DNA from: an uncultured bacterium
GTDB lineage: Bacteria > Poribacteria > WGA-4E > PCPOR2b
Direction: 5' to 3'
Length of the DNA: 64,000 nt
Assembly: GCA_964577695.1 (NCBI GenBank)
Contig: CAZOAL010000020.1
Span: 72,121-136,120 of the forward strand
Shown here: positions 4,998 to 64,000 of the stretch, piece by piece
How positions within the stretch are numbered: position 1 is the first letter of the stretch
How the letters are laid out: the number at the start of each line of letters is the position of its first letter
Notes under the pieces: model-generated
What the model was told of the DNA's origin: nothing
Seen by the model: the letters and a program-made list of their open reading frames with translations, nothing else
The model's database searches: none
Translations under genes and position numbers: made by a program

Positions 4998-5240
4998 TTG
5001 TTTCTAAAGAATACCAAATCTGATTGGGGTTGTCAACACTTAAATGCGCTGATTTATCTCCAGTTCTTCTCCAAGCTGATCACAAAGGAAACAAAGGCAG
5101 GTGAGATGGAAGTCGAAGCGGATAAAACAGGCGGGCTGAAGGATGGAGGAATTTGGTGAGAGCGGGTCTTTTCTGTGAGCGCTTCATCGGCAGGAAAACG
5201 TTTCAGGTCAGCGATTCCCTTTGAAGTCTAATCGATCCTT

Positions 5241-6182
5241 TCAAACTTCCAAATTTCCTTGTCTTCTTTTCCAGCGAAGCGTAATCGCTCCTCCCGCCAA
5301 AACCAACTCTGCCGCAAGACTCCAGAGGCGGGACAACAGCGCCACAAGGGTAGCGGTTGCCGGCGGCAGATAGGCTGACAGCAGCAGGCTCAACACCCCT
5401 TCACGAATCCCCAATCCGCCGGGGGTGACCACGCTCAGAAATCCAACCGTCCACGCCGTAGCATAGATGCCCATCATCGCTGGAAACTGGTGCCATCCCA
5501 ATGGGGAAAGGCTTTTCACAAACAGAAAAAACGCCAGCCCGCAACAGCCCCACAGGAGCAGGTATGTCAAAAGGAAGCGAAGGAATTGGAAGAAAGAAAA
5601 TTTAAAAAGGATATCGGTTCGGAAAACCTTCCGTGAGATGAAATGGAACATCTTTTCGCCACAGCGGGCAAGGGTAAAAATCCCAACGACGACCATGATC
5701 AGAAAGAAGGGAATCAGCCGCGGGACGGGCCCTGTCAACGGGAAGTTCTGACCGGGGAGGAACAGAAGTCCACACAGGGAAATGAAAATGCCTGAAAGGG
5801 TGAGAAAACCCAGATGAAACCCAATGCTCAACAGGGCGTCGGTTTTACGGATACCTGCTTTTTCGCAGAGATACATCTGTCCGAAAAGGTGCCACATTTT
5901 TCCAGGAAGGTATTTGCCTAATTGGGAGAGGGAGAAGATCTGAAACCCTTTGCGATAAGGCAGTCCTTCGCCACGTTGCTTCAAATAGGCGAGCCACGGT
6001 TTGACCGACAAGCAGGAATAGAGCAAAAACGTAGTGAAAGAGGCAATCAGCCAGAGGAGATGGAAATGCCAGGAATAATCCTTGATCTCTCTCCACTTCA
6101 CAACCAGCATCTGCCCCAGAAAGAAGAGGATGGCAAAAGCGATGAGAAAGCCGAGAGATTTCTTGAGCCAATGAAAATTCAT
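5241..6182 (-). CDS. polytopic membrane protein (UPF0104 / lysyl-PG-synthase-TM-like flippase family)
   Basis: 313 aa, highly hydrophobic with multiple TM segments. Confidence 0.5.
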   Translation of the reverse strand: MNFHWLKKSLGFLIAFAILFFLGQMLVVKWREIKDYSWHFHLLWLIASFTTFLLYSCLSVKPWLAYLKQRGEGLPYRKGFQIFSLSQLGKYLPGKMWHLFGQMYLCEKAGIRKTDALLSIGFHLGFLTLSGIFISLCGLLFLPGQNFPLTGPVPRLIPFFLIMVVVGIFTLARCGEKMFHFISRKVFRTDILFKFSFFQFLRFLLTYLLLWGCCGLAFFLFVKSLSPLGWHQFPAMMGIYATAWTVGFLSVVTPGGLGIREGVLSLLLSAYLPPATATLVALLSRLWSLAAELVLAGGAITLRWKRRQGNLEV

Positions 6183-7082: not shown

Positions 7083-8865
7083 AATCGATATGATTCAGAC
7101 GGATCACCTGTTCGAGGGTGCCCTTGATATCATCGAGATGAACCCGATTGATTTGGAGGTCCCGAATATAGACGACTTCGTAATCAGGTGGAAATAGGAC
7201 CGGTTCTTGATCTCGCCGATAGGATGTGCCTTTGAAGTAATAACCGAAAAACTCAGCGGACAAAGGGGAAACACGCACCACCAGGTTCTTGGCGTTTGGT
7301 TTTTGGTTCAGGTAATCAGCGGCGAGATCTAAACCTGAACCATCTCCGATGGTGCACACTTTTGTAATATTCGTTATGCGCCAGCATGGATTGTAATAGG
7401 TGCCATAATAGGGGTGAAGTGTTAGCACTGGAATCACTTGAATGAGGCAGATCAGCCCTATAGCTAGCATATCAGCCACTTTTTTCATCACGGGCCAACG
7501 CTTAAACACTTCAAGTTGAGCGATCGGTTCGCTCAAAACAGACAATCCGATTGCCGCGAGAATATCCATGATTGGAAAGGCGGGTAGTAGATAACGGTTG
7601 AATTTTTTGGCACCTATTGACATGCAGATTGTAAACAAAACAACAAAAATCGAGAGTGCCAGGTATATCCTGTGTGTCCTCACATAGTGGGGCTTTTGCC
7701 TTTGCCACCATAGAACAACGAAACCCATCAAAGACAGGGGGCAGGTGAGTGCCCCACTATTGATGGATAGCATCAGGGGATAAAATCGCCAGCCTGGATC
7801 GAAAACAATCTTGCCGAGAAAATAATGATGGACATTGTGTTCAGTCGTTAGTGCCCAACCGATTCCGTCAACAAAAGGTTGAATCGCCTTATAAACGACA
7901 AAGCCAGTGATGATAAAGCCCATCCCACCAACAATCACAGCCGGTCTAATTGCGCTCCATGTTTCCGCCACAGCCGTTTTTATGATGAGATGTTTTAGCT
8001 TCCTCCCTGACCAAATTGTTATTCCGAGCAAACCAAGCGCAACGAGAGGGGAAATCGGAAGCCTGATTCCGGCAATTGACGGCCAGTAAACCCAGAGCAC
8101 TGGCCAGAAAGCAAAGAATGTCAAACCAGCCGTGCACAGCCAAGCCAAGAAGGCATAGAGAGCTCTACCCAACCCGGCCGTGAAGGTCGTCTGCCGAGAG
8201 GATAACGCGAAAAGCAATGGGAACCAAAACACAAGGATTAAGGCGTTACTTTTTGAAAGACAAGCCAGCCCAAAGCAGATTCCTGAAAATGTCAGATAAC
8301 GGTGGCGGGATGCGTTTTCTACATAGATCAGCAGGGCGAGGATTGCCAGTAGCAGAAAGTCTGCTGCGAGTGCATCTGTATGCAACCGCCGCGACTGTGC
8401 GAGGTAAATGGGGTCAACGGCAATAAAAATCCCTGCAATCGCAGCTATCTTTGTCCCCAGTAATTTTTGAATCAAAAAGAAAGCAATTAAAATGACACAA
8501 CTGGTTGTAATAGCGATTATCAAACGGGTTCTTGCCAGATTCGATGGAGACAGGAATGGATAACTGCGAAGCGAAGGAGCAACAGACAGGGCATGTTTGT
8601 ACTTTGCCCACAAACTGATACCGCCGAGCCACATGGTTGTCACGCCGGGGTGAAAAGACTGAAGGGTTTCGGAAAACTCTCCGTTCTGAAGGGAGAGCAT
8701 AAAATTCCGTGAGCGGTTCATCCAAAGGGTTTCATCAGATGACCAATGCGCATCAAGGGAAAGGACACGGGGGAAAAAGCTTAGGAACCAAATCCCAAAG
8801 ATAATTCCCATGTAACCATACTGTCTCAGAAACTGTCTCATTATTTTCAGCAAGTCCTTACCCAT
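7036..8865 (-). CDS. glycosyltransferase family 39 (ArnT/PMT-like) membrane protein
   Basis: 609 aa, polytopic, with the N-terminal DE-containing loop architecture typical of GT-C/GT39. Confidence 0.65.
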   Translation of the reverse strand: MGKDLLKIMRQFLRQYGYMGIIFGIWFLSFFPRVLSLDAHWSSDETLWMNRSRNFMLSLQNGEFSETLQSFHPGVTTMWLGGISLWAKYKHALSVAPSLRSYPFLSPSNLARTRLIIAITTSCVILIAFFLIQKLLGTKIAAIAGIFIAVDPIYLAQSRRLHTDALAADFLLLAILALLIYVENASRHRYLTFSGICFGLACLSKSNALILVFWFPLLFALSSRQTTFTAGLGRALYAFLAWLCTAGLTFFAFWPVLWVYWPSIAGIRLPISPLVALGLLGITIWSGRKLKHLIIKTAVAETWSAIRPAVIVGGMGFIITGFVVYKAIQPFVDGIGWALTTEHNVHHYFLGKIVFDPGWRFYPLMLSINSGALTCPLSLMGFVVLWWQRQKPHYVRTHRIYLALSIFVVLFTICMSIGAKKFNRYLLPAFPIMDILAAIGLSVLSEPIAQLEVFKRWPVMKKVADMLAIGLICLIQVIPVLTLHPYYGTYYNPCWRITNITKVCTIGDGSGLDLAADYLNQKPNAKNLVVRVSPLSAEFFGYYFKGTSYRRDQEPVLFPPDYEVVYIRDLQINRVHLDDIKGTLEQVIRLNHIDYVWIYKLPQNSSEPF

Positions 8866-11241
8866 TTAATTCTTGCCGGGGATGACACTAAAAAATGGAA
8901 CCCGAATGGTAGGCTGTATTGCACTATTTGTTTTTACCAGGATTTCACCCGAAAGCTGGCCGGGTGGAGCTGTTGGATTGATGGTCGCTGTGAGGTGATA
9001 ACTCATCCCATCTGCTTGTGGAGCGACTTTTGCCATGACATATTTCGAGTTCGATTGGACCCCAGTGATTTTGAAGGGTTGGGAGTTGATTGGGGAAATC
9101 GTCACCTTTTTAGAAACCGCTTTTTCGCCCTCAACGAGTCCGAAAAAGAAATTTCTTGGAGAAACAGCAAACTCCCCTAAAACCTCGCCGATGACTTCAA
9201 CCGTGTGCGTTGCTTTTTTGCCCTCATAGTTGTAGTCTATCAAGAGTTTCCAGTTGAAGGGACCGATTGGCATTGACTCCAGCAGGGCAACTTCGACCCG
9301 TATAATCTCGCTTTGTTTCTCAGAAACGATGTTTGCCCTCAAATCCGTTGAATTGACGCGAACGCCAGTTATGTGAACATCCTTTCCCACTCCGCGATGA
9401 ACCGTTAACGTCTTTTTCGGCGTCCCTTTCGATGGCACTTGGCCGAAGAATACGCGAGTGGGGAACGTTGTAATTGGCACAAACGCCGTTCCTTTGAGTA
9501 TCAGTTTCACCTTGTTTTGCATCGGATCGTTTGTGTAAACATCAACGCTTTCTTCCACTTCCCGATTCTCAGAGGGAACTTTCAGAACAGCTTCAATCAT
9601 TCCATATTCTCCCGGCAGAATTTCGTTCTTTGAGACAATCGTCGCCGTGCATGAACAGGAGTGTTCAACTTTCAATATCTTCAAGATATGGGTGCCGACG
9701 TTCTTGAGTTTAAAAGTGTGTTTTACCTGGCTTCCCCCATGGGCTTCACCAAAATCATAAAGCATAGAATCGGCAAGGACGCGGGGCACTGGTTCAGATG
9801 GGGCACGTTCGGGTTTATAATCAAAGATTAAAATCTCACCGCCCCAAATCTGAGACAGTTCCTTTGATGATAGGTAATGGTCATACTTCTTAGCCGGGTC
9901 AGAAATCAAGACGCCGTCAGAGACAGCCTTTTCAAAAACGAGAAAGTGGTTTCCTTTGAGGTAGGCAATCGCAGGCATTGGAATCTTCTTTAGTGCTTTT
10001 ACGTTTGCCTTGATTCCCTTGGGGTTTAAACCCTTATACTTTGCCGCCTGGAGGAGTCCTAGCATGGTTGTTCCGACGTTTGGATCAAAGTTGGAGAGTC
10101 TGGCAAGCTCTTCAAAGGAGGCATCAACCTTCAACAATTCGCAGATGCGTAACAAACTATTTGGGCCACATGATAGAAGGAGATCCTGTTCAAGTTGAGA
10201 TTTGTCTGGGAGTGGGGGTTCATAGGATCTTTTACCTAAGCTCTCCGCGGAGATTTCTGACCCGAGTTCGACCCTTAAGCCTTGATTGAGATAAGATTGA
10301 GGGTTTATCTCAAAAAAGTGGGCTGGGAAATCAATATTAAACCGCGCTTCCTTGACAAGAACTGTTTGGACGTTATCAATTTCTGTTTCCTGTTTTTTTA
10401 TCCATCGGGTCACTGAAGGAAACCAGATTTCTCCATACTTTTGAAAATCCTCATAAACTAACTCCCATGTCACCGGAGGTCTTATTTCTTCCTGCCTTCT
10501 TTCTTCTTTACGAATGCAGAACTGTTTCTGCGGATCCACCCACACTCTTACCACGTCTGTGGGAGCTTCGGCGTTTTTTGTCCGAAATTCAAGTAGGTAG
10601 CAATCTGCATTCCCAATCACCTGATGGCCTATCAGCTTTGCATCATAAGGAACTCGATTCAGAGAACGTCCGAACAGTTCAAAATCTTGAAAGCCTTCGT
10701 ACTTTGAATTCTTATAAAATGAAATAGATTGAGCGGGGAATCGATTTAAACCTTCAAAAACCTGAGTTTGTCCATCATAAGTAAGAACTCTGAAATAATC
10801 TCCTTCCGTATACCTTGCTTCATCACTAGACGGATCTAATCCTCTACGATCGATCGCGGTCATTTTGTATTGAAAATTTCCTGAATCCCCTCCAGAATCT
10901 TGGTATTGAATATTAAAAGCAACATTCGATTCCCGATGGACACTACGCCGATTCATGGTCGCACGAAAAGGGAGTGCCTTAAGGTATATTTGCTGGAGTT
11001 CTGACTGATCAGAAGCTGAGTATTGACTCCGAATTTTTTCTTTTTCCTTTTCCATCCACGTTTGGATCTCTTCAGGTGATTTTGGGTTGGCATAGTGTTG
11101 GGTAAAAATTAATCTCATTTCACCACTTTGGATAAGATTACGAGACTGGTTAACACCGGCAATAAGTTGTTCGCGGGTTAGTTCTTCAGACACACACAAC
11201 TGGCTTATCAGAAAAAACGCGATGCAGAATATTCGGAACAT
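8866..11241 (-). CDS. secreted protein with peptidase C39-like domain and DUF1573 repeats
   Basis: Signal peptide. C39-like region (LLLSCGPNSLLRI...GNHFLVFEK). C-terminal HSCSCT-type DUF1573 motifs. Directly abuts the GT39 gene (8865/8866). Confidence 0.55.
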   Translation of the reverse strand: MFRIFCIAFFLISQLCVSEELTREQLIAGVNQSRNLIQSGEMRLIFTQHYANPKSPEEIQTWMEKEKEKIRSQYSASDQSELQQIYLKALPFRATMNRRSVHRESNVAFNIQYQDSGGDSGNFQYKMTAIDRRGLDPSSDEARYTEGDYFRVLTYDGQTQVFEGLNRFPAQSISFYKNSKYEGFQDFELFGRSLNRVPYDAKLIGHQVIGNADCYLLEFRTKNAEAPTDVVRVWVDPQKQFCIRKEERRQEEIRPPVTWELVYEDFQKYGEIWFPSVTRWIKKQETEIDNVQTVLVKEARFNIDFPAHFFEINPQSYLNQGLRVELGSEISAESLGKRSYEPPLPDKSQLEQDLLLSCGPNSLLRICELLKVDASFEELARLSNFDPNVGTTMLGLLQAAKYKGLNPKGIKANVKALKKIPMPAIAYLKGNHFLVFEKAVSDGVLISDPAKKYDHYLSSKELSQIWGGEILIFDYKPERAPSEPVPRVLADSMLYDFGEAHGGSQVKHTFKLKNVGTHILKILKVEHSCSCTATIVSKNEILPGEYGMIEAVLKVPSENREVEESVDVYTNDPMQNKVKLILKGTAFVPITTFPTRVFFGQVPSKGTPKKTLTVHRGVGKDVHITGVRVNSTDLRANIVSEKQSEIIRVEVALLESMPIGPFNWKLLIDYNYEGKKATHTVEVIGEVLGEFAVSPRNFFFGLVEGEKAVSKKVTISPINSQPFKITGVQSNSKYVMAKVAPQADGMSYHLTATINPTAPPGQLSGEILVKTNSAIQPTIRVPFFSVIPGKN

Positions 11242-51802: not shown

Positions 51803-52090
51803 ATGCCTCAATATGGTTGGTACCGGTTTGAGTGGGATGATGAAAATCAGAAAAACGGGAACGTCCAGCATTTGCGCGATCACGGTATCGAGCCAGAAGA
51901 AGCAGAGGAATGTTTTTCCCACGACTATCAATGGTGTCGAGATGAGTGGCGATTTGATGATGTCTACATTTTAGACGGCAGAACAGATCGCGGAAGACGG
52001 TTGCGTCTGGTTTTCCAGGATAAAGGGAACGGGCTTGCCCGGGTGTTTACCGGTTGGGATTTGAAACGGAAAAAGAGGAGGAAAAGATGA
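51803..52090 (+). CDS. brnT: BrnT-like toxin (DUF497), cassette-encoded
   Basis: FEWDDENQKNGNVQHLRDHGIEPEEAEECF. Confidence 0.6.
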   Translation: MPQYGWYRFEWDDENQKNGNVQHLRDHGIEPEEAEECFSHDYQWCRDEWRFDDVYILDGRTDRGRRLRLVFQDKGNGLARVFTGWDLKRKKRRKR

Positions 52091-52404
52091 AAAAACAATT
52101 CAGCGATTTATCCAAAGCCGAACAGGAAAAAATCGAACTGGAATATCATCATAAGAATCCGGCTGAATTTGATGACCTGATGTCTCAGACCCAAACCTAC
52201 ACCACTGCGTCGATCCGTTTGCCCGGTGAGTTGGTTGAAACGTTGAAAGTGGTAGCGAAGTTGGAGGGTGAACGGGGGTATCAGTCAATGGTGAGAAAAT
52301 GGATCACCGAGCACTTGCAACAAGAGGCCCGACTGGCGTTGCGATTGTCAGAGATGCCTCTCAAAGAGGTTGTCGCGGTTTTGGAGGGGCAACTCACCAA
52401 ATGA
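52087..52404 (+). CDS. brnA: BrnA-like antitoxin, cassette-encoded
   Basis: 106 aa from MKKQF with an AAAGAGGAGG RBS. Overlaps the brnT stop. C-terminal RHH-like region. Confidence 0.5.
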   Translation: MKKQFSDLSKAEQEKIELEYHHKNPAEFDDLMSQTQTYTTASIRLPGELVETLKVVAKLEGERGYQSMVRKWITEHLQQEARLALRLSEMPLKEVVAVLEGQLTK

Positions 52405-52495: not shown

Positions 52496-52729
52496 ATGGA
52501 GGTCAAACTATCAAAGGAGATTCCAATCATGTCAAATGTAGAGGAAATTAAAGTCGCCATCGAAGCCCTTCCTGAAGCGGATTATGTCCGATTGAGGCAA
52601 TGGTTTACTGAAAAAGACTGGGAAAAATGGGATAGACAGATCGAGGCAGACTCAAAGTCAGGAAAATTGGATTTCTTAATCGCAGAAGCCCTTGAAGAAA
52701 AAACGAAGGGAACACTCAAGGAGCTTTAA
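52496..52729 (+). CDS. putative addiction-module antitoxin-like small protein
   Basis: 77 aa, acidic and helical. Immediately followed by a possible degenerate RelE/ParE-like ORF. Confidence 0.35.
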   Translation: MEVKLSKEIPIMSNVEEIKVAIEALPEADYVRLRQWFTEKDWEKWDRQIEADSKSGKLDFLIAEALEEKTKGTLKEL

Positions 52730-52963
52730 ATGCACCGAACAACCAGTCGCTTCTGGAGATGTTTCGAGGAACTTCCGGAATCGGTTCAAACGAAGTTCTC
52801 GTCTCGGCAATGCACGGTTTTCAGTCGTTGGTTTGAATCGTTACGTGGCGGCAAGTATGTCGTCGTCGTTGTGGTCAGCCATCCTGCGCCAAAGGCGCGT
52901 CATTGGATTATTACAGCTTATATCGCCAGAGAATTGGCAAAGGAAGTGGAGGTAAGAGAATAA
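52730..52963 (+). CDS. possible degenerate RelE/ParE-like toxin
   Basis: 77 aa. Starts 1 nt after the previous stop. Contains a GTC-repeat (VVVVV) stretch. Confidence 0.25.
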   Translation: MHRTTSRFWRCFEELPESVQTKFSSRQCTVFSRWFESLRGGKYVVVVVVSHPAPKARHWIITAYIARELAKEVEVRE

Positions 52964-55497: not shown

Positions 55498-56526
55498 ATG
55501 AATAGCGTTATATCAGATGCAGAGTTCGTCTATCGAACGCTGGAGGGAGATTTCGAGGCGTTTGGTGCTTTGGTGCAGCGGTATCAGGAGATGGTCTACG
55601 GAGTGGCTTACTCTTATGTGCGAAACTTCCGCGACGCTCAGGATGTGACCCAGGAAGTCCTGATTAAGGCGTATCAAAATCTGGCGAAGTATGACACGAA
55701 ACGTCCGTTTGGTGCTTGGCTCTACGTCATAGCGAAAAGAACCGCCTTAGATTGGCTCAGAACCCAAAGCCCCACCACTGAAATAGAGATTGAAACCGAG
55801 AGGGACACCAAGGAAATTGCTGATACGGCTCCAGGCCCGGAGGCCATCGCTGAAAAACGTGAGATGGAACACCTGCTACGCAAGGCGCTGGAGTCTCTCT
55901 CCGATGTGAACCGGGAGACGTTCTGTCTTTACCACGTCAACGGTTACTCTATTCAGGAGATTAGCCAATTCCTCGCTGTACCAATAGGAACGGTGAAACG
56001 CCGATTACACGTTTCCCGAAAGCAACTTCATGAGGAGGTTATGAGAATGGTAGAGGAGACGTTTGATCAAAACAAGCTGACATGGAAGTTTACACAAGGC
56101 GTGGTCGATAAGGTGAAGAACTTAAAAAATCGTTTACCGGGTTATATCCCCCAGGAGTTCATGGAACTCGTCCAGATGACAGTTGATGAGTTAAACGAGA
56201 GGCAGAAAAAGCTGCTTCGTTCGCTTGCTGACGTCCTTTCCGTAGACTTGGAGAAGTTCAAGCTGGACCAGGAGCACCTTGTTTCCGTCGCCGAATTGCT
56301 TCCTGAGCAGAGGGATTATCTCTATCAGACACTCCATGAACTTGAGCTGATAACAATTATCAGTATGTTAAAACGAGGTACAAGTTTCACCCCTCTGATT
56401 GAGGATTTTCAGTCCATTCAGGTAGCGTTTGGGCTATACGACACCTCAGATTATCGTCCTTATGTCCGATTCTTTCGCCGCAATCCCGATGGGTCTCAGC
56501 ACTCCATCAAGATAAATGCAACATAG
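55498..56526 (+). CDS. ECF sigma-70 factor with about 150-aa C-terminal extension
   Basis: Region 2 (AYSYVRNFRDAQDVTQEVLIKAY) and region 4 (ETFCLYHVNGYSIQEISQFLAVPIGTVKRRLHVSRKQL). Confidence 0.75.
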   Translation: MNSVISDAEFVYRTLEGDFEAFGALVQRYQEMVYGVAYSYVRNFRDAQDVTQEVLIKAYQNLAKYDTKRPFGAWLYVIAKRTALDWLRTQSPTTEIEIETERDTKEIADTAPGPEAIAEKREMEHLLRKALESLSDVNRETFCLYHVNGYSIQEISQFLAVPIGTVKRRLHVSRKQLHEEVMRMVEETFDQNKLTWKFTQGVVDKVKNLKNRLPGYIPQEFMELVQMTVDELNERQKKLLRSLADVLSVDLEKFKLDQEHLVSVAELLPEQRDYLYQTLHELELITIISMLKRGTSFTPLIEDFQSIQVAFGLYDTSDYRPYVRFFRRNPDGSQHSIKINAT

Positions 56527-56534
56527 GAGGTCTT

Positions 56535-58205
56535 ATGAAGCAGCAGAATTCAGTTCTTGGAGCTTTTCTGAGCGTAGTTCAGCCATCCGTCGTATACGGC
56601 GCAAATATAGGAATGGATTCCTTCCTGAAGGCTTTATTGAAGCATAGCTCCTTCGATGAAATCCATATATTCTTCGATGCAATCTCCTTAATCAATTCCC
56701 AACAGAGCCTGAGCGAACTCCTCAAATCGAGAGAAGAGTTTTCAAAGCTGAAACTTAAAAATCTTCTTGACCTTTCAAGAGACCTCCAGGATGGAAACTA
56801 CGTCGCTTTCTATCAGGGAAATCCCTTCATTGGCAATCTCAGCTACCTTAGAAGCGAGTTTTCCGGTTTTAACTTCCCTGTCACTGGCACCGCGCACACC
56901 ATCAGTTATCATTTCGTCCTTGTTGACCTGTTTTTAACTTTTGCCTCAAGGATACAGCCTTTTGATTCAATCGTATGCACAAGTAGAGCTCAGAAGAAGG
57001 CACTGGCGGAACTTTTCTTAATTGCATCCGAAAACTTAAAATCCAGCTTAGGGGTTGAGCCTTCATACGGTGGAAGATTGGATATTATCCCTTTCGGCGT
57101 TGACTCGGTACTCTATCATCCGAGGGATAAAGAGGATTTGCGCAATCAGCTTGAACTGCCGAAAGAGAAGCTTATTATTCTCTGGGTTGGAAGGTTCTCA
57201 GCTTACGACAAGGTTGATCTTTGTCCTCTCCTCCTTGTTTTTAAGGAGATTCTTGAAAAGGAAGCAGATGTGGTCTTGCTGCTTGCCGGAGATGACAAGC
57301 ACAAGTATGCTGGGAAAGTAAAGGTTTTTGCGGATGAGCTTGGAATAGCTGATAAAATCATTATTATGACCGACCCTCCATTGAAGCTTGTGCCTTTGCT
57401 TTATTCCGCCTGTGATATCTTCCTTGCTCCAAGCGATAACCTTCAGGAGACTTTTGGACTTGTGGTTATAGAGGCAATGGCGTCAGGACTGCCGGTAGTC
57501 GTATCAGACTTTGACGGTTACAGAGAACTTGTGATTCACAATGAGACCGGCTTCGTCGTTCCGACATACTGGGCAAAGTGTGATCAGATGATAAATTCCG
57601 CTGCTCCTCTCTCATCATGGCTCTTGAGCCACCTCTACCTGAGTCAATCAATCTGTGTAGATTTTACCAAGATGAGAGAATATGTCCTTGTCCTTGTTGA
57701 GAACCCCGAGCTCAGGCGAAAGATGGGTGAAGCGGGGAGAAAGCGTGTGCTTGAAAATTACGATTGGCATATCATCATCAAGCAGTATGAGGAACTGTGG
57801 AGAGAGTTGAGCCAGGAAGCCAAAGGAGTGGAGCAGATTCAATCAGGAGCTTTGTTCAAACCGCAGTATTTCAGGGCTTTTAAGCATTACACGACTTCTC
57901 TATTAGATGAGGAGAGCGAGATCAATCTGAGCGAGAGAGGAAAAGACCTCCTTGGGGAGAAGGCAAAACCCGTTGATTTTTACGCAGAGATGGGTGTTTT
58001 GCTCAACCCTGGCGTTATGGAAGGAGTCATTGTTACACTTGGTGAGGGTGGATGGATGAAAGTTGGGAATGTCGTAAGGAAGATGGAGGAAGTGTATGGC
58101 ATTGCTTCAGAGATGGCAATTTATCAGATTATGTGGATGATGAAATATGGGGTTTTAGAAGCGAAAACCGGTAACTTGAGCAATCATGTTGATATTGAGT
58201 CTTAG
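56535..58205 (+). CDS. glycosyltransferase family 4 (GT-B) with long N-terminal domain
   Basis: ETFGLVVIEAMASGLPVVVSD (EX7E motif). Confidence 0.75.
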   Translation: MKQQNSVLGAFLSVVQPSVVYGANIGMDSFLKALLKHSSFDEIHIFFDAISLINSQQSLSELLKSREEFSKLKLKNLLDLSRDLQDGNYVAFYQGNPFIGNLSYLRSEFSGFNFPVTGTAHTISYHFVLVDLFLTFASRIQPFDSIVCTSRAQKKALAELFLIASENLKSSLGVEPSYGGRLDIIPFGVDSVLYHPRDKEDLRNQLELPKEKLIILWVGRFSAYDKVDLCPLLLVFKEILEKEADVVLLLAGDDKHKYAGKVKVFADELGIADKIIIMTDPPLKLVPLLYSACDIFLAPSDNLQETFGLVVIEAMASGLPVVVSDFDGYRELVIHNETGFVVPTYWAKCDQMINSAAPLSSWLLSHLYLSQSICVDFTKMREYVLVLVENPELRRKMGEAGRKRVLENYDWHIIIKQYEELWRELSQEAKGVEQIQSGALFKPQYFRAFKHYTTSLLDEESEINLSERGKDLLGEKAKPVDFYAEMGVLLNPGVMEGVIVTLGEGGWMKVGNVVRKMEEVYGIASEMAIYQIMWMMKYGVLEAKTGNLSNHVDIES

Positions 58206-58266
58206 AACTGACATTCCACGATGCGGGATGTCGATAGCACAAAAAGAAAGAAGGAGGTGTTTTGAG

Positions 58267-58497
58267 ATGGAAGCGAAAGTCGAGAGGAGAGATTTCCTGA
58301 AGAAAGTCCCGCTTTTCGGTGCAGGTCTAGCTCTGAGTCTGATTCCCCTGGCTGCTGTTGGCGAGACGCCGCAGATGGGGAAGCTTTCGGAAAATTACTT
58401 TGCCGCCTCATGCAGCCCTACCGGAGTTACGAACTGCAATCCAGGTGTTAACGGAAGTTGTGGGCCTGGAACTATCAATTGCGGTACAGGAGCATAA
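58267..58497 (+). CDS. small Cys-rich peptide with twin-arginine (Tat) signal-like leader; candidate RiPP precursor
   Basis: MEAKVERRDFLKKVPLFGAGLALSLIPLAAVG leader with RRDFLK. Core ...AASCSPTGVTNCNPGVNGSCGPGTINCGTGA has 5 Cys. GAAGGAGG RBS 7 nt upstream. Confidence 0.5.
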   Translation: MEAKVERRDFLKKVPLFGAGLALSLIPLAAVGETPQMGKLSENYFAASCSPTGVTNCNPGVNGSCGPGTINCGTGA

Positions 58498-58634
58498 TCT
58501 GGAAGCATAAATCGAGAGCGTGCTCCAAGTTGGCACATTTGTAGATGCGGAAGAGGGGAAAGCGGTGGTATTTTTCCCCCTTCCGCTCTCAGAATGAACA
58601 AGGTCAAAGCAGCAAAGAAGATTGGAGGGTTGAT

Positions 58635-60008
58635 ATGGCTACCTTTTTACTGAGGAATCCCCAAGTTACCCTTTTAAAAGAGGAGGGAGGCGGTATTTTT
58701 TATAACTCCGATACAGCGGATACTTATGCCATCAACGAAGCGGGTGTTGTCATCTGGGAGCTATGCGATGGAACACATACAAAGGAGGAGATTGAGGAGG
58801 CAATCAAGAAAAGCTTTGGGGGGAAAAAACAAATCTGTAAAGATACGCTGGATTTCCTTAACCATCTAATCGATGAGAATTTGCTTTTAACTCCCCCAAA
58901 AAGAAGTGGTATTGAAGGTGAAGCAGGGTCTGGGCATAAAGAAGCATCCGTCCTAACCCACTTATATCTTTATATTACAAACCGGTGTAATCTTGCCTGC
59001 CGCCATTGCTGGATTACACCCACCTTCACGGATGAGTTCGTTGAAGGGAAGGTAAGCTTTGAAGAATACGCAGAGTTCATTGGGCAGGCTATCCCTCTTG
59101 GGCTTTCAGGGGTGAAAATAACAGGCGGCGAGCCTTTGCTCTATAAACCGCTTCCAAAACTCGTTGAATTTTTGAACTCCAGAAAAATCGGCATCACCAT
59201 TGAGACCAACGGAACACTCATAAATGATGACCTCGCCTCCCTCTTCCATTCCGCCAACGTTTTCACAAGTGTCAGCATAGATGGGGCTGAAAGCGAAATC
59301 CACGATTTATTTAGAGGGAGAAAAGGTGCCTTCGACATGGCGATAAACGGGCTTAAGCTCCTACTTCAACATAATGTTAACCCCGTTGTGATTATGTCAC
59401 TGTACAGCGGAAACAAGAACCAGATAGAACCCCTTCTGAAACTCTGTTCAGAGCTTGGGGTTAAGCGATTCAAGATAAATCCCATAATTGAAATTGGTCG
59501 TGGAAAATCGCTTGGTAAAAAACAACTGCTCCTCTCAAGGGAAGAACTCACCGAACTCCTTGAAAAATCAGAGGGTGACTGGCAGGAGAAATATGGAATC
59601 AAGGTTTTATTTTCCTATCCATGTTCTCTCAAACCGATAGACTTTCTCATAAAAGGAGATATTCCTATCTGTCCGTTTAGAAACTTGCTCTCTGTGCTTG
59701 AAGATGGGAGCATAACCTTCTGCGGATTTGGATATTCGGAACCGAAGTGGATTATGGGAAACATAAGGGAAACAAGGTTGGAACATCTCTGGAAGGAAGC
59801 AGAGCAACTCAAGGAAGCGCGGGAGAAAATCCCGGACAAGCTTGGGGGCGTGTGCGGCAGATGTTTCATAAAAAAGAGATGTCAGGGAGGCTGCAGAGCG
59901 ATGGCTATGGCAGCCTATGGTTCCCTTATAGCTCCTGACCCAACCTGTCAAACTTTCTTTGAACTCGGTCAATTCCCTAAATCCCGTTTAGCCCCGGTGG
60001 TTGGTTAA
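58635..60008 (+). CDS. radical SAM/SPASM-domain peptide maturase with N-terminal PqqD-like RRE domain
   Basis: RRE-like N-terminus (FYNSDTADTYAINEAGVVIWELCDG). CNLACRHCW rSAM motif. C-terminal Cys-rich SPASM (CPFRNL...CGFG...CGRCFIKKRCQGGCRA). Confidence 0.75.
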   Translation: MATFLLRNPQVTLLKEEGGGIFYNSDTADTYAINEAGVVIWELCDGTHTKEEIEEAIKKSFGGKKQICKDTLDFLNHLIDENLLLTPPKRSGIEGEAGSGHKEASVLTHLYLYITNRCNLACRHCWITPTFTDEFVEGKVSFEEYAEFIGQAIPLGLSGVKITGGEPLLYKPLPKLVEFLNSRKIGITIETNGTLINDDLASLFHSANVFTSVSIDGAESEIHDLFRGRKGAFDMAINGLKLLLQHNVNPVVIMSLYSGNKNQIEPLLKLCSELGVKRFKINPIIEIGRGKSLGKKQLLLSREELTELLEKSEGDWQEKYGIKVLFSYPCSLKPIDFLIKGDIPICPFRNLLSVLEDGSITFCGFGYSEPKWIMGNIRETRLEHLWKEAEQLKEAREKIPDKLGGVCGRCFIKKRCQGGCRAMAMAAYGSLIAPDPTCQTFFELGQFPKSRLAPVVG

Positions 60009-60062
60009 TTCACAGAATTCGCACTTTGAAACACCAGATAAGGGAATTTTTGCCAGCCGTCA

Positions 60063-61157
60063 ATGACCCATTCATTGATCCACGAAAGAGATGCCGAAAT
60101 GCCACTTGCAATTGACACGAAGAAACTCACGAGGCAATTTAAATTAACATCGTACGGAAAATTCCTCAATATGGGCGATAGTCCCGGAAGTCTGCTAGAA
60201 GCAGCTGCACTTCGCATACTGAAACGGACTTCGGTGAACCATGTGACAGCAGTGGACAACGTGACCCTTCAAGTGGCAGAGGGTGAATTCCTTGGGATTT
60301 TGGGTCCGAACGGTTCAGGGAAATCGACCCTTCTCAAAATACTCGCGGGACTGATTTATCCAAGCAGTGGAGAGGCGACAATTCTGGGCTATAATCTTTG
60401 GAAAGATCGAGAGAAAATCGCAAGCTGCACCAACTTCATTCCTGGTATCCTGACAGGAGGGGCTTGGATTGATCCAAGTCTCACGGCAAAGCGGAATTTA
60501 CAGTCCGTGGCGGAGCTTTTCGGTCTTCCTCCTCACAAGGTGGAAGAAGCCCTGGTCTTTTCAGGTTTGAAAGAATTCGCGGAAGTCCGGGTTGGAACTT
60601 TTTCCTCGGGGATGTCAGCGAGGCTTCAGCTTGCCTTTAGCCTCATGAGGGAGTCGCCGCTTTTTCTGCTGGATGAGCCCACAGAAGGGATATCGCCGGA
60701 GGCTGTGAAGGAAATTCGAGACCATATTGTAGAACTGAATCGAAAGGCAGGTGTGACCGTTCTTTACGCCACTCATCACGTTTTAGAGGCCCAAGCGATG
60801 TTTACGAAGGTCGCCATCATGGACCGAGGAAAAATCGCCGTTATTGACACCGTGTCTTCCCTCATCAAATCGTTGGGAGAAAGGGAAGCGCTGACAATGG
60901 AAGTTTCTCAATTTCATCCCGCTTTAGAAAGTCAGTTGTCAAACCTGGATAGAGTGAGTGACTTCGCCTGTGATATCACAGACCGGGTCTCCGGGCGGGC
61001 AACGGTGAGAATGCTGCTTCAAGACAGCAGAACCGTCTTAGCGGATATTGTCGATTTGACCGTTAAAGCCGCGAACTGTAAAATCCACCACATCACACTT
61101 TCAGAGCCGAACCTGGAGGATGTTTATCTGCACTACACCGGAAGGAGGATTGCATGA
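60063..61157 (+). CDS. ABC transporter ATP-binding protein
   Basis: Walker A GPNGSGKST, signature SSGMSARL, Walker B LFLLDEPT. Alternative start at 60099. Confidence 0.8.
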   Translation: MTHSLIHERDAEMPLAIDTKKLTRQFKLTSYGKFLNMGDSPGSLLEAAALRILKRTSVNHVTAVDNVTLQVAEGEFLGILGPNGSGKSTLLKILAGLIYPSSGEATILGYNLWKDREKIASCTNFIPGILTGGAWIDPSLTAKRNLQSVAELFGLPPHKVEEALVFSGLKEFAEVRVGTFSSGMSARLQLAFSLMRESPLFLLDEPTEGISPEAVKEIRDHIVELNRKAGVTVLYATHHVLEAQAMFTKVAIMDRGKIAVIDTVSSLIKSLGEREALTMEVSQFHPALESQLSNLDRVSDFACDITDRVSGRATVRMLLQDSRTVLADIVDLTVKAANCKIHHITLSEPNLEDVYLHYTGRRIA

Positions 61158-62026
61158 GTTCTTCTTTCATCGCCTCATTGAAAAGGAACCTTAAACTCTT
61201 CTGGGTTCTCTTCAAACGAGATATGTGGCAGCGTTATGCCTGGCTGCAATGGTTCCTCCCTTTTGAAGCCATCAGTCTCATTACGGGAGCAGCCACATGG
61301 TTTTTTTATGGCAAGATGTTCGGTGTCAACGCTCCGATCCTTCAAAATTATGGTGGTGATTTTCTGACCTATTTAATTCTAGGTATTGCGTTTAATGCCA
61401 TCCTTCAACACAGCATGGGGAGCATTTATCAAATCATCTTGGGGCTGTACCGTTGGTCCTGGTCATCGCAAGGGGTGCGACTCAGCATGGGGGAATACAT
61501 TAGCATGGCAAAAATCCCAACTTGGGTCTACATCCTGTCAAACATTACTTGGGGCTATTGCCAGGTGTTTATCCGATTTGCGATTTATCTTTTGGCAGGA
61601 ATTTTCGTTTTTGGAATGGCTCTTCAGCCCTCAATTAATTACGGCGGCATCCTCTTAGCGATGTTCTTCGGCATGCTTGCCTGTGTTGGCATTGGTCTAA
61701 TCAGTTCGAGTATGGTCTGGCACGCGGGAGCATGGCATGGCATGGAGCCCATTCAATGGGCTATAGGTTTGCTCGCTCCTTTGGTAAGCGGCGTCTACTT
61801 TCCGTCCGAAGTGCTGCCAAAGTCGCTTCAAATCATCTCAGTCCTTTTTCCCCAGACTTACGCGCTTCGAGCCTCACGGCAGGCCGCGATGGGAATGGGC
61901 CATTCTAATCTCATCCATGACTATGTCGTTCTCGCAACGTTTGCCATCATCTCCCTTGTTTTAGGAATTCTCCTATTGAAATCGTCAATGGAAGTGGCAC
62001 GGCACAAAGCCTCCCTCGGTTCCTAG
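61154..62026 (+). CDS. ABC-2 type transporter permease
   Basis: 290 aa, 6 TM. 4-nt overlap with the ATPase gene. Confidence 0.7.
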   Translation: MSSSFIASLKRNLKLFWVLFKRDMWQRYAWLQWFLPFEAISLITGAATWFFYGKMFGVNAPILQNYGGDFLTYLILGIAFNAILQHSMGSIYQIILGLYRWSWSSQGVRLSMGEYISMAKIPTWVYILSNITWGYCQVFIRFAIYLLAGIFVFGMALQPSINYGGILLAMFFGMLACVGIGLISSSMVWHAGAWHGMEPIQWAIGLLAPLVSGVYFPSEVLPKSLQIISVLFPQTYALRASRQAAMGMGHSNLIHDYVVLATFAIISLVLGILLLKSSMEVARHKASLGS

Positions 62027-62170
62027 CCAGGAACCCATCTTGTTCCTAACCCCGATCAGAGATCGGGGCGTTTATTTTGAGCCACAAAATGACCCATTCA
62101 ACGCCGGAGTCTTAACACAACCGCGGGTTGATATAACCCTCTCCTGTCCCCAAATCGCACGCAACCAACC

Positions 62171-63121
62171 GTGGGCAAGAAAGTCGATACCCATTCGGAG
62201 GGAATAATGACAACGATAGAAGGCATCCTGACCAGAAAGCTTCCCCAATTTCCCAGAGTGGTTGAATTCCTCACCACCTCCTACACGGATTTTATCGAGA
62301 ACGGTGTTTCCGGCGTGGAAGAAGAATTTTGGCAAAACTATGAAGAGATTCTTGAGGAAATTTCTGCTATTTCTGGGTTGACGTGCCAGGAAATTTATGA
62401 GGAATTAAAGCGTTTCCAAATTGTGAGAAGCAACTGCGCGCCAATTATTGAAGCGCAACCCCAAGAATCACGGTTCGGCTTGGTTCGTGAAAAAATTTAT
62501 GAGCAAGATGCGTACCCGATTTTAGAACACTTTTACTTTGCATACGCCCCATACACAATTCAGAGAAAGGAGTTCGTCATTCAGCAAGTCCAAGTGATGA
62601 ACTCTCAACCGTCTCTCTTTTGTGATCTCGGGGTTGGGCCTGGAGTCCTCTTTTCAAGAGTTCTCCGCGAGCAGCAAAATTGGATGGGATACGGGGTGGA
62701 TATAAGCGCCAAATGCGTTGCCTATGCTAAGAAAATGGTGGATTTCCATCATCTCTCCCATCGCGCTTTTATCATACAGGCAGATGTACGTTCCACCCCC
62801 TATGAAGCCAATTTCTTCGATGTAGTGATAGCCAGCGAAGTTTTGGAACACATACCCGATCCGAAAGTGGGGCTCAGAGAGTTAACTCGAATTTTGAAGT
62901 TGGACGGTTCTGCGATGATTGCTCTCCCCATTTGTCTTGAACAGCCCGAACATCTTTATGTTTTCAGGGGGGAAGATGAGTGCAAAAAGGCTTGCGAGGA
63001 CGTCGGATTACACATTGAGCATTTCGAGAAATGGGAATCAGGAGGTGCTTTCATAGATAGCTTCGCGGTATGCAGAAAAGTTGCTTTGAATCCCGATGAA
63101 ATCGGGGAGGCAAATTACTGA
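62171..63121 (+). CDS. class I SAM-dependent methyltransferase
   Basis: LFCDLGVGPGVLF motif I ... VVIASEVLEHIPD. Confidence 0.7.
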   Translation: MGKKVDTHSEGIMTTIEGILTRKLPQFPRVVEFLTTSYTDFIENGVSGVEEEFWQNYEEILEEISAISGLTCQEIYEELKRFQIVRSNCAPIIEAQPQESRFGLVREKIYEQDAYPILEHFYFAYAPYTIQRKEFVIQQVQVMNSQPSLFCDLGVGPGVLFSRVLREQQNWMGYGVDISAKCVAYAKKMVDFHHLSHRAFIIQADVRSTPYEANFFDVVIASEVLEHIPDPKVGLRELTRILKLDGSAMIALPICLEQPEHLYVFRGEDECKKACEDVGLHIEHFEKWESGGAFIDSFAVCRKVALNPDEIGEANY

Positions 63122-63359
63122 AGAACTTTGGAGAGAGTTATACAGGCTCTCCCAGAATTTTGAGCCACCCCTTAAAAAGATGCCGATGCTGTTTCCAATC
63201 ATTCAGGCCATCCTTGGGGTGGCGCGTGAAACGAAGCGTGTGGGAGAGGTGGAGGCAGAGGTGCTCAAAAAGTATCAAAAATACTCCCCCATGCCTCAAG
63301 ATATCAAGTACCAGATGGCGTGGCTGCTGAAACAAGGGTTGTTGGAGGTTGTGAGTTGA
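63096..63359 (+). CDS. hypothetical small protein
   Basis: 87-aa ORF overlapping the MT 3' end. Confidence 0.3.
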   Translation: MKSGRQITEELWRELYRLSQNFEPPLKKMPMLFPIIQAILGVARETKRVGEVEAEVLKKYQKYSPMPQDIKYQMAWLLKQGLLEVVS

Positions 63360-63360
63360 T

Positions 63361-63723
63361 ATGAAAAAATGTGAGATTTTCGTCGCTGATGCAACTATTA
63401 TAATGAGAAGGGAAAAATATCTAACCAGGAGGATAAGAATAATGTCAACTACCCCCAGGAAGCAAGAGCGCGAGATTGTGAATGAAAACAACGCACAGGT
63501 ATACACAGGGCGACATGTGAAGGTTGCAGTTGTAGATGATGGCATTTGCTTATCCCACCCGAATATCAAGGAAGTGTGTGGCGGTGTCAGTATCCATGTT
63601 ACCTCTGGTGGAACTATAATCTTGGGTGAAGATTACCTGAACGAATCCTTAACCGGATTTGCTGTGTGTTCCACCGTTGCTACTCAGACATCAAGCCACT
63701 TCCCAAAGAGCTGCCGGTCATAG
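63361..63723 (+). CDS. hypothetical small protein (possible second peptide substrate or accessory)
   Basis: 120-aa ORF. Internal start MSTTPRK at 63442 is possible. Confidence 0.3.
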   Translation: MKKCEIFVADATIIMRREKYLTRRIRIMSTTPRKQEREIVNENNAQVYTGRHVKVAVVDDGICLSHPNIKEVCGGVSIHVTSGGTIILGEDYLNESLTGFAVCSTVATQTSSHFPKSCRS

Positions 63724-63753
63724 GGAATGGAACCTCCTAACGAAGGATCATAA

Positions 63754-64000
63754 ATGGTACATTTTAAGAAAATTGTAGGATTTCTAAAGGATTTCACCTC
63801 TTTACTAAAGAGTGCCCCCAAAATGATGGGGCTGGTCTATCGGGCATCACCGTTCTACTTCTTTGTCTCCTTCGCATTGGTGTTACCAGAATCACTTCTA
63901 CCACCGGCACAAATCTGGATATCAAAGCTAATCATCGATTCTGTCGTCTCCCAAATAGAGGATTTAAGGAAAGGGGGAGAGGCGGATCTATCCTCCCTGT
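63754..64000 (+). CDS. ABC exporter (transmembrane-domain N-terminus), partial
   Basis: AAGGA RBS. Open frame to the window end with hydrophobic N-terminus, typical of peptide-export ABC TMDs. Confidence 0.45.
   Translation, partial: MVHFKKIVGFLKDFTSLLKSAPKMMGLVYRASPFYFFVSFALVLPESLLPPAQIWISKLIIDSVVSQIEDLRKGGEADLSSL

Follow-up and report, generated by a model that had tools for sequence, protein, structure and literature searches.

Ribosomally made peptides that are modified after translation usually leave the cell by dedicated pumps once their leader has been removed. In the QhpC/QhpD/QhpE/QhpF system, a radical S-adenosylmethionine (SAM)/SPASM enzyme cross-links cysteines of the peptide, and a cytoplasmic subtilisin-like protease and an ATP-binding cassette (ABC) exporter deliver it to the periplasm. 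The SynChlorMet (SCM) cassette, defined by comparative genomics, consists of the precursor ScmA, ScmC, the PqqD protein ScmD, ScmE, and the radical SAM/SPASM protein ScmF (NCBIfam TIGR04248 to TIGR04252); in the literature we searched, we found nothing on SynChlorMet, its TIGRFAM numbers, or its chemistry. Here we analyze a gene cluster at the 3′ end of a 64,000-nucleotide stretch of DNA (hereafter the window) from an uncultured poribacterium (contig CAZOAL010000020.1 of assembly GCA_964577695.1, forward-strand positions 72,121 to 136,120). In this cluster, a small Cys-rich precursor peptide with a twin-arginine-type N terminus lies between genes for a glycosyltransferase and a ScmF-like enzyme with a fused PqqD domain. 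We consider it probable that the locus makes a post-translationally modified ribosomal peptide and is a glycosyltransferase-linked offshoot of SCM.

How does this arrangement compare with described peptide systems? The streptosactin/GggB and freyrasin/PapB pathways resemble it in combining a radical SAM/SPASM maturase that carries a recognition domain with a core of short, recurring Cys units. Two un-nested, four-residue sactionine rings occur in streptosactin (PMC9389541), and a Cys-to-Gly(+3) link would give the same ring size here, where the acceptor atom is presumed. In contrast, their precursors have ordinary leaders and lack a signal peptide and a glycosyltransferase, and our enzyme scores far under the cutoffs of the corresponding maturase models (PapB, 69 bits; StsB, 113 bits). 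A secretion signal on a Cys-rich modified peptide has been called “highly unusual” among bacterial peptide natural products (PMC12452194, PMC11626156, and PMC13056109); for the general Sec pathway, such use came to light only lately, with the bufferins. In the bufferins/oxazolins and in a Chryseobacterium lipoprotein-pathway peptide, as in our precursor, a general secretion signal replaces or joins the leader. Those systems, however, use the Sec or lipoprotein route and an MNIO (DUF692) enzyme, whereas here a twin-arginine motif accompanies a radical SAM/SPASM enzyme. The word “Tat” is absent from the MNIO survey, and the literature searched held nothing joining twin-arginine translocation (Tat) signals with radical SAM peptide products or with ribosomally made, post-translationally modified peptides (RiPPs). 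Glycocins, whose products bear a sugar on Cys, Ser, or Thr, differ in that their transferase is of the SunS/GT2 type, while the one here is a GT4 enzyme of the GT-B group. We could not find, in the same literature, a Tat-type precursor beside a glycosyltransferase described for such peptides.

A Conserved Precursor Family Beside a Radical SAM/SPASM Enzyme

Is the small open reading frame (ORF) upstream of the enzyme a genuine gene? Its product (MEAKVERRDFLKKVPLFGAGLALSLIPLAAVGETPQMGKLSENYFAAS-CSPTGVTNCNPGVNGSCGPGTINCGTGA) has four cysteines, all within the last 28 residues and each in a C-x-x(x)-G unit, and it is the sole ORF in the 64 kb in which RRxFLK is joined to an uncharged hydrophobic stretch. 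An earlier note on this DNA, made from the letters alone, had described a strong ribosome-binding site and a Cys-rich core of roughly 45 residues. The ribosome-binding site is there (Table 1), and so are the four Cys/Gly units, but the Cys-bearing core is about 28 residues long, and only three of the units are CxxG, the first (C-S-P-T-G) being Cx3G. Independent assemblies also have it as a called, conserved ORF; it is a real conserved gene, beyond chance.

The precursor family is real but rare. Queried with the window peptide alone, a word-indexed database returned only the peptide itself; the family was recovered through a profile built from relatives read out of neighboring loci, which gathered 22 proteins from the same kind of database. 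An exhaustive search of 1.84 billion representatives held only five distinct 50% clusters of the family. Across 19 members, R7, R8, F10, and L11 are invariant, as are the C and G columns of the C-x-x-G units (alignments A1 and A2), and CxxG units contain 88 of the family's 94 cysteines (94%). Identity by column is 56% in the leader and 24% in the core columns other than C and G; modified peptides of ribosomal origin typically show this contrast of a constant leader and a changing core.

Does the precursor travel with the enzyme? The closest enzyme homologs are 62 to 65% identical, one of them named Candidatus Poribacteria, and they adjoin GT4 genes of 541 to 548 amino acids. Beside them lie one to five small ORFs (up to five precursor copies on one contig) that share the leader RRR(D/E)FLKKVPLFGAGxALGLxALxExxExPKARKLSGxD, each copy with a different Cys core. 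An enzyme clade of 42% identity has two precursor ORFs just downstream of the enzyme, and an Armatimonadota genome whose enzyme is 45% identical has two just upstream. Precursor and enzyme homologs are therefore paired in at least three lineages: a Poribacteria-like one, the 42%-identity clade, and Armatimonadota. The earlier note had named a lack of conservation or co-occurrence as one outcome contrary to its reading; we found the ORF adjoining enzyme homologs in every related locus recovered. A scan of species-representative genomes detected no enzyme relative above 45% identity, and a metagenome scan with a leader-only alignment yielded two loci, one of which is the same contig as L006 (related loci are numbered with the prefix L). 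L013 is a metagenome contig with a near-identical copy of the region (99.7 to 100% protein identity; offset +53020).

Two further observations concern the surroundings of the precursor genes. Small proteins are interleaved with them in L006 (1138–1644 and 2926–3294, equivalent to L095:6772–7275 and 8560–8919) and in L010 (2499–2891). These proteins share the motif …G[IT]PI[TV]TVYK.G…FI[RK]K.GKI.MVNEDRTLR.PTE.ELRE… followed by a Glu/Lys-rich, coiled-coil tail. They have no family match, none occurs in the window, and the L010 copy has a signal-like N terminus. In L095, a repetitive stretch (5024–5950) lies just 5′ of the five-precursor array, and several of its frames read repeats of …KGQGAKSKEHHAPCSMLHAP….

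What kind of enzyme accompanies the precursor? In agreement with the earlier note, it consists of an N-terminal PqqD-like domain (~58710–58886; Pfam PqqD, 39 bits), a radical SAM domain (~58971–59441; Radical_SAM, 96 bits), and a C-terminal SPASM domain (~59679–59864; SPASM, 28 bits). The CxxxCxxC motif and all seven SPASM cysteines are present and invariant. Its top NCBIfam family is ScmF (TIGR04251) at 268 bits, where the cutoff is 400; secondary matches are AhbD (145 bits), NirJ (122), StsB (113), a sulfatase maturase (93), SkfB (78), and PapB (69). The nearest solved structures are SkfB (E = 2e-22), anSME, and CteB. The enzyme thus has the radical SAM, SPASM, and recognition domains expected of sactipeptide and ranthipeptide maturases, and SkfB and CteB are near in the structure search. 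We also considered a cofactor, heme, or sulfatase-maturase identity and rejected it on the family scores. Grouping with sulfatase-maturating or cofactor enzymes was the second contrary outcome foreseen in the earlier note; the enzyme scores higher with ScmF (268 bits) than with AhbD (145) or the sulfatase maturase (93).

Relationship to SynChlorMet

How close is the locus to canonical SCM cassettes? A one-genome-per-species scan gave 309 confirmed ScmF-like relatives in bacteria and methanogenic archaea. For locus analysis 80 of the 309 were kept, and the canonical comparison set has n = 79. Near the enzyme, 56 of the 80 loci have a small ORF with at least three CxxG units; one of these 56 (L014) is of the Tat type, and in the majority of the others, the first residues form a PqqA-like (K)YE(K)PxLxxLG leader. 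CxxG units hold 152 of the 162 cysteines (94%) of the canonical precursors. From E-x-P to the first Cys, the median distance is 18 residues in canonical and Tat-type precursors alike, whereas the first Cys itself has its median position at residue 24 in the canonical and at residue 52 in the Tat-type peptides. In hhalign, the Tat-type GE-x-PKARKL leader aligns on the YE-K-P-x-x-x-x-L of canonical ScmA (probability 63%, E = 7e-5). The shared use of CxxG, the E-x-P spacing, the hhalign match, and the later first Cys together lead us to read the precursor as a ScmA-type peptide with about 28 added N-terminal residues. As judged from these alignments, the precursor family descends from the ScmA design, and residues 31 to 48 are a probable docking site for the PqqD domain.

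A fully canonical cassette is found in the delta proteobacterium NaphS2, which has an exporter, ScmF, ScmD, ScmE, ScmA, ScmC, and an S26-type peptidase; its peptide matches ScmA (TIGR04252) at 69 bits and its ScmF scores 591 bits. Our locus resembles SCM in that ScmF is the top family, a PqqD element is present, the cores are built of C-x-x-G units with the E-x-P spacing, and the ABC exporter is of the same type. The PqqD-type partner that ScmD represents in the canonical cassette is a fused N-terminal domain here, while the Armatimonadota relative has it as a gene of its own, with ScmD as the top family. A tree of 86 enzyme cores places every Tat-type enzyme in a single clade nested among ScmF-like sequences. 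The window is unlike SCM in the fusion of PqqD, in the ~28 extra N-terminal residues, in the adjacent glycosyltransferase, and in being without ScmE, ScmC, and the S26-type peptidase.

Several results weigh against an SCM assignment. The window peptide has no match to ScmA TIGR04252 (cutoff 35 bits) at E ≤ 0.01; the enzyme is under the curated ScmF cutoff (268 versus 400 bits); neither ScmE (the second radical SAM protein) nor ScmC (HprK-related) is among the genes from 55.5 to 68 kb; and the enzyme tree is a neighbor-joining tree without support values. The precursors of the Poribacteria type, the 42% clade, and the Armatimonadota type likewise have no match to TIGR04252 at E ≤ 1. On balance, the locus is probably a divergent, glycosyltransferase-linked SCM variant. 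The earlier note had been able to name no class for it; a branch of SCM now offers one, although SCM itself is defined only bioinformatically.

The canonical loci offer an observation of their own. ScmF-like loci L015 to L093 (e.g., L034:2626, L081:2443, L085:9148, L046:45 and 4302, and L069:9493 and 10074) mostly have one to three precursor-like ORFs with three to eight C-x-x-G units. Because most such ORFs fall under the ScmA cutoff, the ScmA-like precursor family seems to extend well beyond what the current model covers.

A Candidate Twin-Arginine Signal

Are the extra residues a Tat signal? Tat substrates are marked by an N-terminal (S/T)-R-R-x-F-L-K motif, an h-region of moderate hydrophobicity, and a cleavage site in the c-region. 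Like a signal peptide, the segment has the complete succession of n-, h-, and c-regions. The window's RRDFLKK is followed by 16 uncharged residues (15 to 16 across the family), the h-region has a mean Kyte–Doolittle value of 1.4 to 1.9 in the family, and the RR-x-F-L-K consensus is invariant across it. The Tat-signal model TIGR01409 matches 10 of the 19 members at E ≤ 0.1, with one relative at 20.6 bits, and a peptide of the 42% clade, scored separately, passes the model's cutoff. Most homologs end the signal segment in ALA or ALS followed by E; the window copy, with PLAA followed by V, is less canonical. We therefore lean toward export of the precursor family through Tat as predicted from these features, with a somewhat lower chance for the window organism.

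A number of results weigh against this route. The window peptide reaches 16.5 bits with TIGR01409, where the cutoff is 16.7, and lacks a clean AxA site; the leader that had been called textbook in the earlier note has its twin-arginine motif and hydrophobic stretch but stays just below the model's limit. The peptide is also the most divergent family member after the signal segment. No tatA or tatC lies within the window, although 64 kb says little about a genome. By a strict count, an exporter is near the enzyme in one of the seven Tat-type loci and in 18 of the 79 canonical loci (P = 1). Finally, the window cluster, unlike the other Tat-type loci, retains an SCM-type exporter and a cytoplasmic S8 protease, and this pair would be enough for a classical cleave-then-pump route. 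Loss of the exporter had also been considered as evidence for Tat and was rejected: a loose count finds one in 41 of 80 genome loci, and the strict count is without significance.

The exporter and the protease are the basis of the strongest alternative, which we consider unlikely. It holds that Tat is not involved, that the twin-arginine N terminus is part of a long leader, and that the S8 protease cuts this leader and the ABC exporter pumps the core, in the manner of QhpE and QhpF acting on QhpC. The 618-residue exporter has MsbA/HlyB-type matches, and its full-length homologs, 32 to 36% identical, adjoin canonical ScmF genes. The N-terminal part of the 645-residue protein is a subtilisin-type S8 domain whose Asp, His, and Ser boxes are intact and which lacks a signal peptide, and QhpE (NF049966) is its top family at 127 bits. 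The likeness to the Qhp system has limits: the S8 domain is under the QhpE cutoff (165 bits), QhpD is missing from the top families of the enzyme, dehydrogenase genes are absent, and the protease is fused to a C-terminal part that matches DUF1611 and the “peptide maturation system protein” model TIGR04066 (89 bits). The subthreshold TIGR01409 score and the imperfect AxA site of the window peptide would fit a long leader as well. Yet RR-x-F-L-K is still invariant in L003, L006/L095, L010, L011, L012, and L014, which have no exporter or S8 protease in the available DNA. The recognition motif is kept downstream at its usual distance from the core, and because it persists there, recognition, judged by the ScmA analogy, does not require the 28 additional residues. 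The n-, h-, and c-region layout of the added segment also argues against a mere leader extension, as does a terminator-like hairpin that parts the exporter and protease genes from the precursor operon.

Two side observations touch on Tat in the related loci. A search of the other loci for tatA and tatC found none outside L003 to L005. In L003, a TatA-like segment (Pfam TatA_B_E, 52.5 bits) separates the precursor genes from the enzyme: at L003:2305–2691 (also L004:505–830 and L005:223–608), a second precursor copy without a start codon (…KPRRDFLKKVPLFGAGLALGLSALAETDETPKARKLASGD…CNRG…) runs in frame into this segment. The stretch overlaps the start of the radical SAM gene and is frameshifted at an A-run in two other assemblies; it can be read as a precursor–TatA fusion, as a TatA gene with an odd start, or as a recombination scar. 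Separately, an aldo-keto reductase gene downstream of the Poribacteria-type cluster (L006:9136–9639, equivalent to L007:6825–7328) opens with a twin-arginine motif of its own, DRRQFLKLLGGAALTG; ordinary Tat signals thus seem to be in use in that lineage.

The Glycosyltransferase Link

Which neighboring genes are conserved partners? The tailoring genes listed in the earlier note are all present around the precursor, but across the related loci only the glycosyltransferase is a conserved partner. The window GT4 is 56 to 58% identical, end to end and with its C-terminal extension included, to the enzyme-adjacent gene in L003, L006 to L010, and L095. The extension is about 130 residues long and conserved (motif ...IYQIMWMMKYGVLE); a single-sequence structure model of it had a mean predicted local distance difference test (pLDDT) score of 47.8 and was judged unusable. 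Speculatively, the extension might be a winged helix that binds peptide. With five glycosyltransferase queries, we found a GT-B gene within 5 kb of the enzyme in 7 of 7 Tat-type loci but in none of the 79 canonical ones (Fisher P = 1.9e-10). Tat-type loci contain three kinds of transferase: a long GT4, a GH38 glycoside hydrolase with three transferases, and a MurG-like enzyme. Because the kinds differ, the association looks recurrent rather than merely inherited.

Set against this, the seven Tat-type loci represent only three to four independent lineages, and the nearest solved relatives of the GT4 work on small molecules. We only tentatively propose that the GT4 glycosylates the peptide. The association fits a sugar-bearing, cross-linked product, with the peptide as presumed acceptor, that would need a translocase for finished cargo.

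A small ORF downstream shows a possible resemblance to the GT4. The 87-residue ORF (63096–63359) ends in …IKYQMAWLLKQGLLE and resembles the GT4 tail (58035–58160) with a pairwise BLASTP E value of 0.005, which is suggestive only; a small domain that binds peptide or DNA may be common to both. The ORF has no family match in NCBIfam or Pfam.

Proposed Pathway and Chemistry

How might these parts work together? The ScmF-like enzyme would grip the E-x-P segment of the precursor in the cytoplasm through its fused PqqD domain, and its radical SAM/SPASM domains would then act on each Cys unit, most likely closing a small thioether ring between the Cys sulfur and a carbon close by. The invariant Gly at +3 could offer its alpha-carbon as the acceptor, which would give a four-residue sactionine ring as in streptosactin. 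The adjacent GT4 would glycosylate the peptide or something produced together with it. The compact, cross-linked product would leave finished via the general Tat pathway, and signal peptidase would cut off the signal. Here the extracytoplasmic function (ECF) sigma factor, the ABC-2 pump, the methyltransferase, the SCM-type exporter, and the S8 protease could contribute tailoring, protection, or a second way out.

The steps of this scheme differ in how probable they are. The Gly three residues after each Cys is the sole fixed feature of the core. A thioether from Cys to a nearby carbon is the most economical guess; we give thioether chemistry on the Cys units about an even chance, going by this pattern and the enzyme family. 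Product chemistry and export are inferred throughout, which counts against the scheme. It is quite possible, though somewhat less likely than not, that this would be the first peptide natural-product family to use Tat: a ScmA-type precursor would have gained a signal as the cluster gained a glycosyltransferase, and a product made bulky by its cross-links and sugar would be exported finished by a translocase for folded cargo. Until the modifications are in place, the PqqD domain might retain the precursor, in a role like that of Tat proofreading chaperones toward cofactor enzymes.

Could the cysteines instead stay free? On this alternative, which we judge improbable, the Tat-exported peptide would work in the periplasm with its cysteines as metal or cluster ligands, like a bufferin or a metallothionein, and the enzyme would carry out a change such as Cys oxidation, as sulfatase maturases do, or epimerization. 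In its favor are the abundance of Cys and Gly in the core, the ECF sigma factor at the head of the operon, the presence of anSME among the enzyme's solved relatives, and the existence of copper-binding, Cys-rich modified peptides with signal peptides (PMC11626156 and PMC12452194). However, the thioether maturase models ScmF (268 bits), StsB (113), and SkfB (78) stand against 93 bits for the sulfatase maturase, the cluster contains no metal-handling gene, and peptide maturases with a recognition domain and a SPASM domain typically make thioethers on Cys-rich cores, as is general knowledge for sactipeptides and ranthipeptides. That the small ORF is no substrate at all and sits by chance beside an enzyme of AhbD- or NirJ-like cofactor or heme chemistry, as the secondary scores (145 and 122 bits) might suggest, is hardly credible, given that these scores are far under their cutoffs (500 and 515 bits) and under ScmF, that a peptide-binding PqqD domain is fused to the enzyme, and that the ORF family and the enzyme clade co-occur in every locus recovered, from three phylum-level lineages.

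If the proposed pathway is true, a Tat-routed, cross-linked, and possibly glycosylated peptide would represent a new coupling of cytoplasmic modification to export. It would also be a natural test of how Tat judges small cargo to be finished, and its signal would be a portable element with which engineered cyclic peptides could be secreted. For the widespread SCM family, the finding provides a point of entry, and the C-x-x-G rule predicts the enzyme's site of action.

Locus Layout and Other Genes

From 55.5 kb to the end of the window, all genes are on the + strand and tightly packed (Table 1). Every gene named in the earlier note was recovered where it had been placed, and the second ABC exporter indeed begins at 63754, with the cluster running on past the window end. 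The 137-nucleotide gap reported between precursor and enzyme is right if the enzyme starts at ATG 58635, which has GGAGG at 58624–58628.

Table 1. Features of the cluster, in window coordinates
Feature	Position	Strand	Details
ECF-type sigma factor	55498..56526	+	342 aa; TIGR02937 119 bits; Pfam Sigma70_r2, r4_2
GT4-family (GT-B) glycosyltransferase	56535..58205	+	556 aa; Glycos_transf_1 110 bits
Shine-Dalgarno AGGAGG	58252..58257	+	9 nt 5′ of precursor ATG; direct sequence reading
Precursor ORF, 76 aa	58267..58497	+	peptide begins MEAKVERRDFLKKVPLFGAGLALSLIPLAAVGE
Precursor residues 1-30, twin-arginine-type signal segment	58267..58356	+	n-region with RRDFLKK at its end, then h-region VPLFGAGLALSLIPLAA
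Precursor residues 31-48 VGETPQMGKLSENYFAAS, counterpart of ScmA/PqqA-like leader	58357..58410	+	hhalign, E-x-P spacing
Precursor core residues 49-76 and stop codon	58411..58497	+	CSPTG-VTN-CNPG-VNGS-CGPG-TIN-CGTG-A
Stable hairpin in precursor-enzyme gap	58543..58589	+	fold of 58495-58640: -45 kcal/mol, z = -1.9
Radical SAM/SPASM maturase with fused PqqD	58635..60008	+	457 aa; Pfam and NCBIfam
ABC transporter ATPase, DrrA-like	60063..61157	+	TIGR01188 205 bits
ABC-2 family permease	61154..62026	+	4-nt overlap with ATPase; PF12698 36 bits
Terminator-like hairpin	62050..62068	+	8 pairs, 6 GC, T-rich tail
Class I SAM-dependent methyltransferase	62171..63121	+	316 aa; Methyltransf_11 62 bits; N-terminal ~130 aa without assignment
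87-aa ORF	63096..63359	+	called as gene on L013
120-aa ORF	63361..63723	+	truncated paralog of downstream S8 protease N terminus
Fused permease/ATPase ABC exporter, start	63754..64000	+	first 82 codons in window; 618 aa whole, to ~65610 on parent contig
S8 protease fused to TIGR04066/DUF1611 domain	~65611-67548, past window end		645 aa

How is the cluster organized? The terminator-like hairpin after the ABC-2 permease suggests two operons, the first probably ending there; in total, terminator-like sites in the region are no more numerous than expected after shuffling. The hairpin between precursor and enzyme has no T-tract and weak significance, and could serve as an attenuator or RNA stabilizer; a role as terminator was rejected on its lack of a T-tract and a z of only −1.9. 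The 120-residue ORF is 34% identical to the first ~70 residues of the S8 protease over 68 residues (E = 1e-11); it keeps the Asp box and has lost the His box, and it is therefore probably a decayed duplicate.

Several genes are particular to this contig. As had been noted earlier, the ECF sigma factor has a C-terminal extension: Sigma70_r2 and r4_2 lie in residues 25 to 177, and the ~150 C-terminal residues have no family match. No homolog of it occurs in any related locus, and none lies upstream in L095; placed 9 nucleotides 5′ of the GT4 gene, it likely regulates this copy of the cluster. The ABC ATPase has weak matches only in the related loci (26 to 32% identity in eight, the best in L055), and the ABC-2 permease has a single one (30% identity, L055); the pair is possibly a self-protection or export pump. 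Farther upstream, at 51803–52404, two overlapping small ORFs are weakly like the BrnT toxin (21 bits) and the CopG/BrnA antitoxin (23 bits), both below cutoff, and another pair of ORFs, of 77 residues each and without a family match, lies at 52496–52963.

The methyltransferase has no counterpart in the related loci. Two Poribacteria-type lineages have a URO-D-family gene (uroporphyrinogen decarboxylase/corrinoid methyltransferase fold; 74 and 85 bits) downstream of the enzyme, at L003:5693–6745 after a major facilitator superfamily (MFS) transporter gene and directly at L006:6768–7889, with further copies in L007 to L009 and L095. This gene and the window methyltransferase may represent alternative means of methylation.

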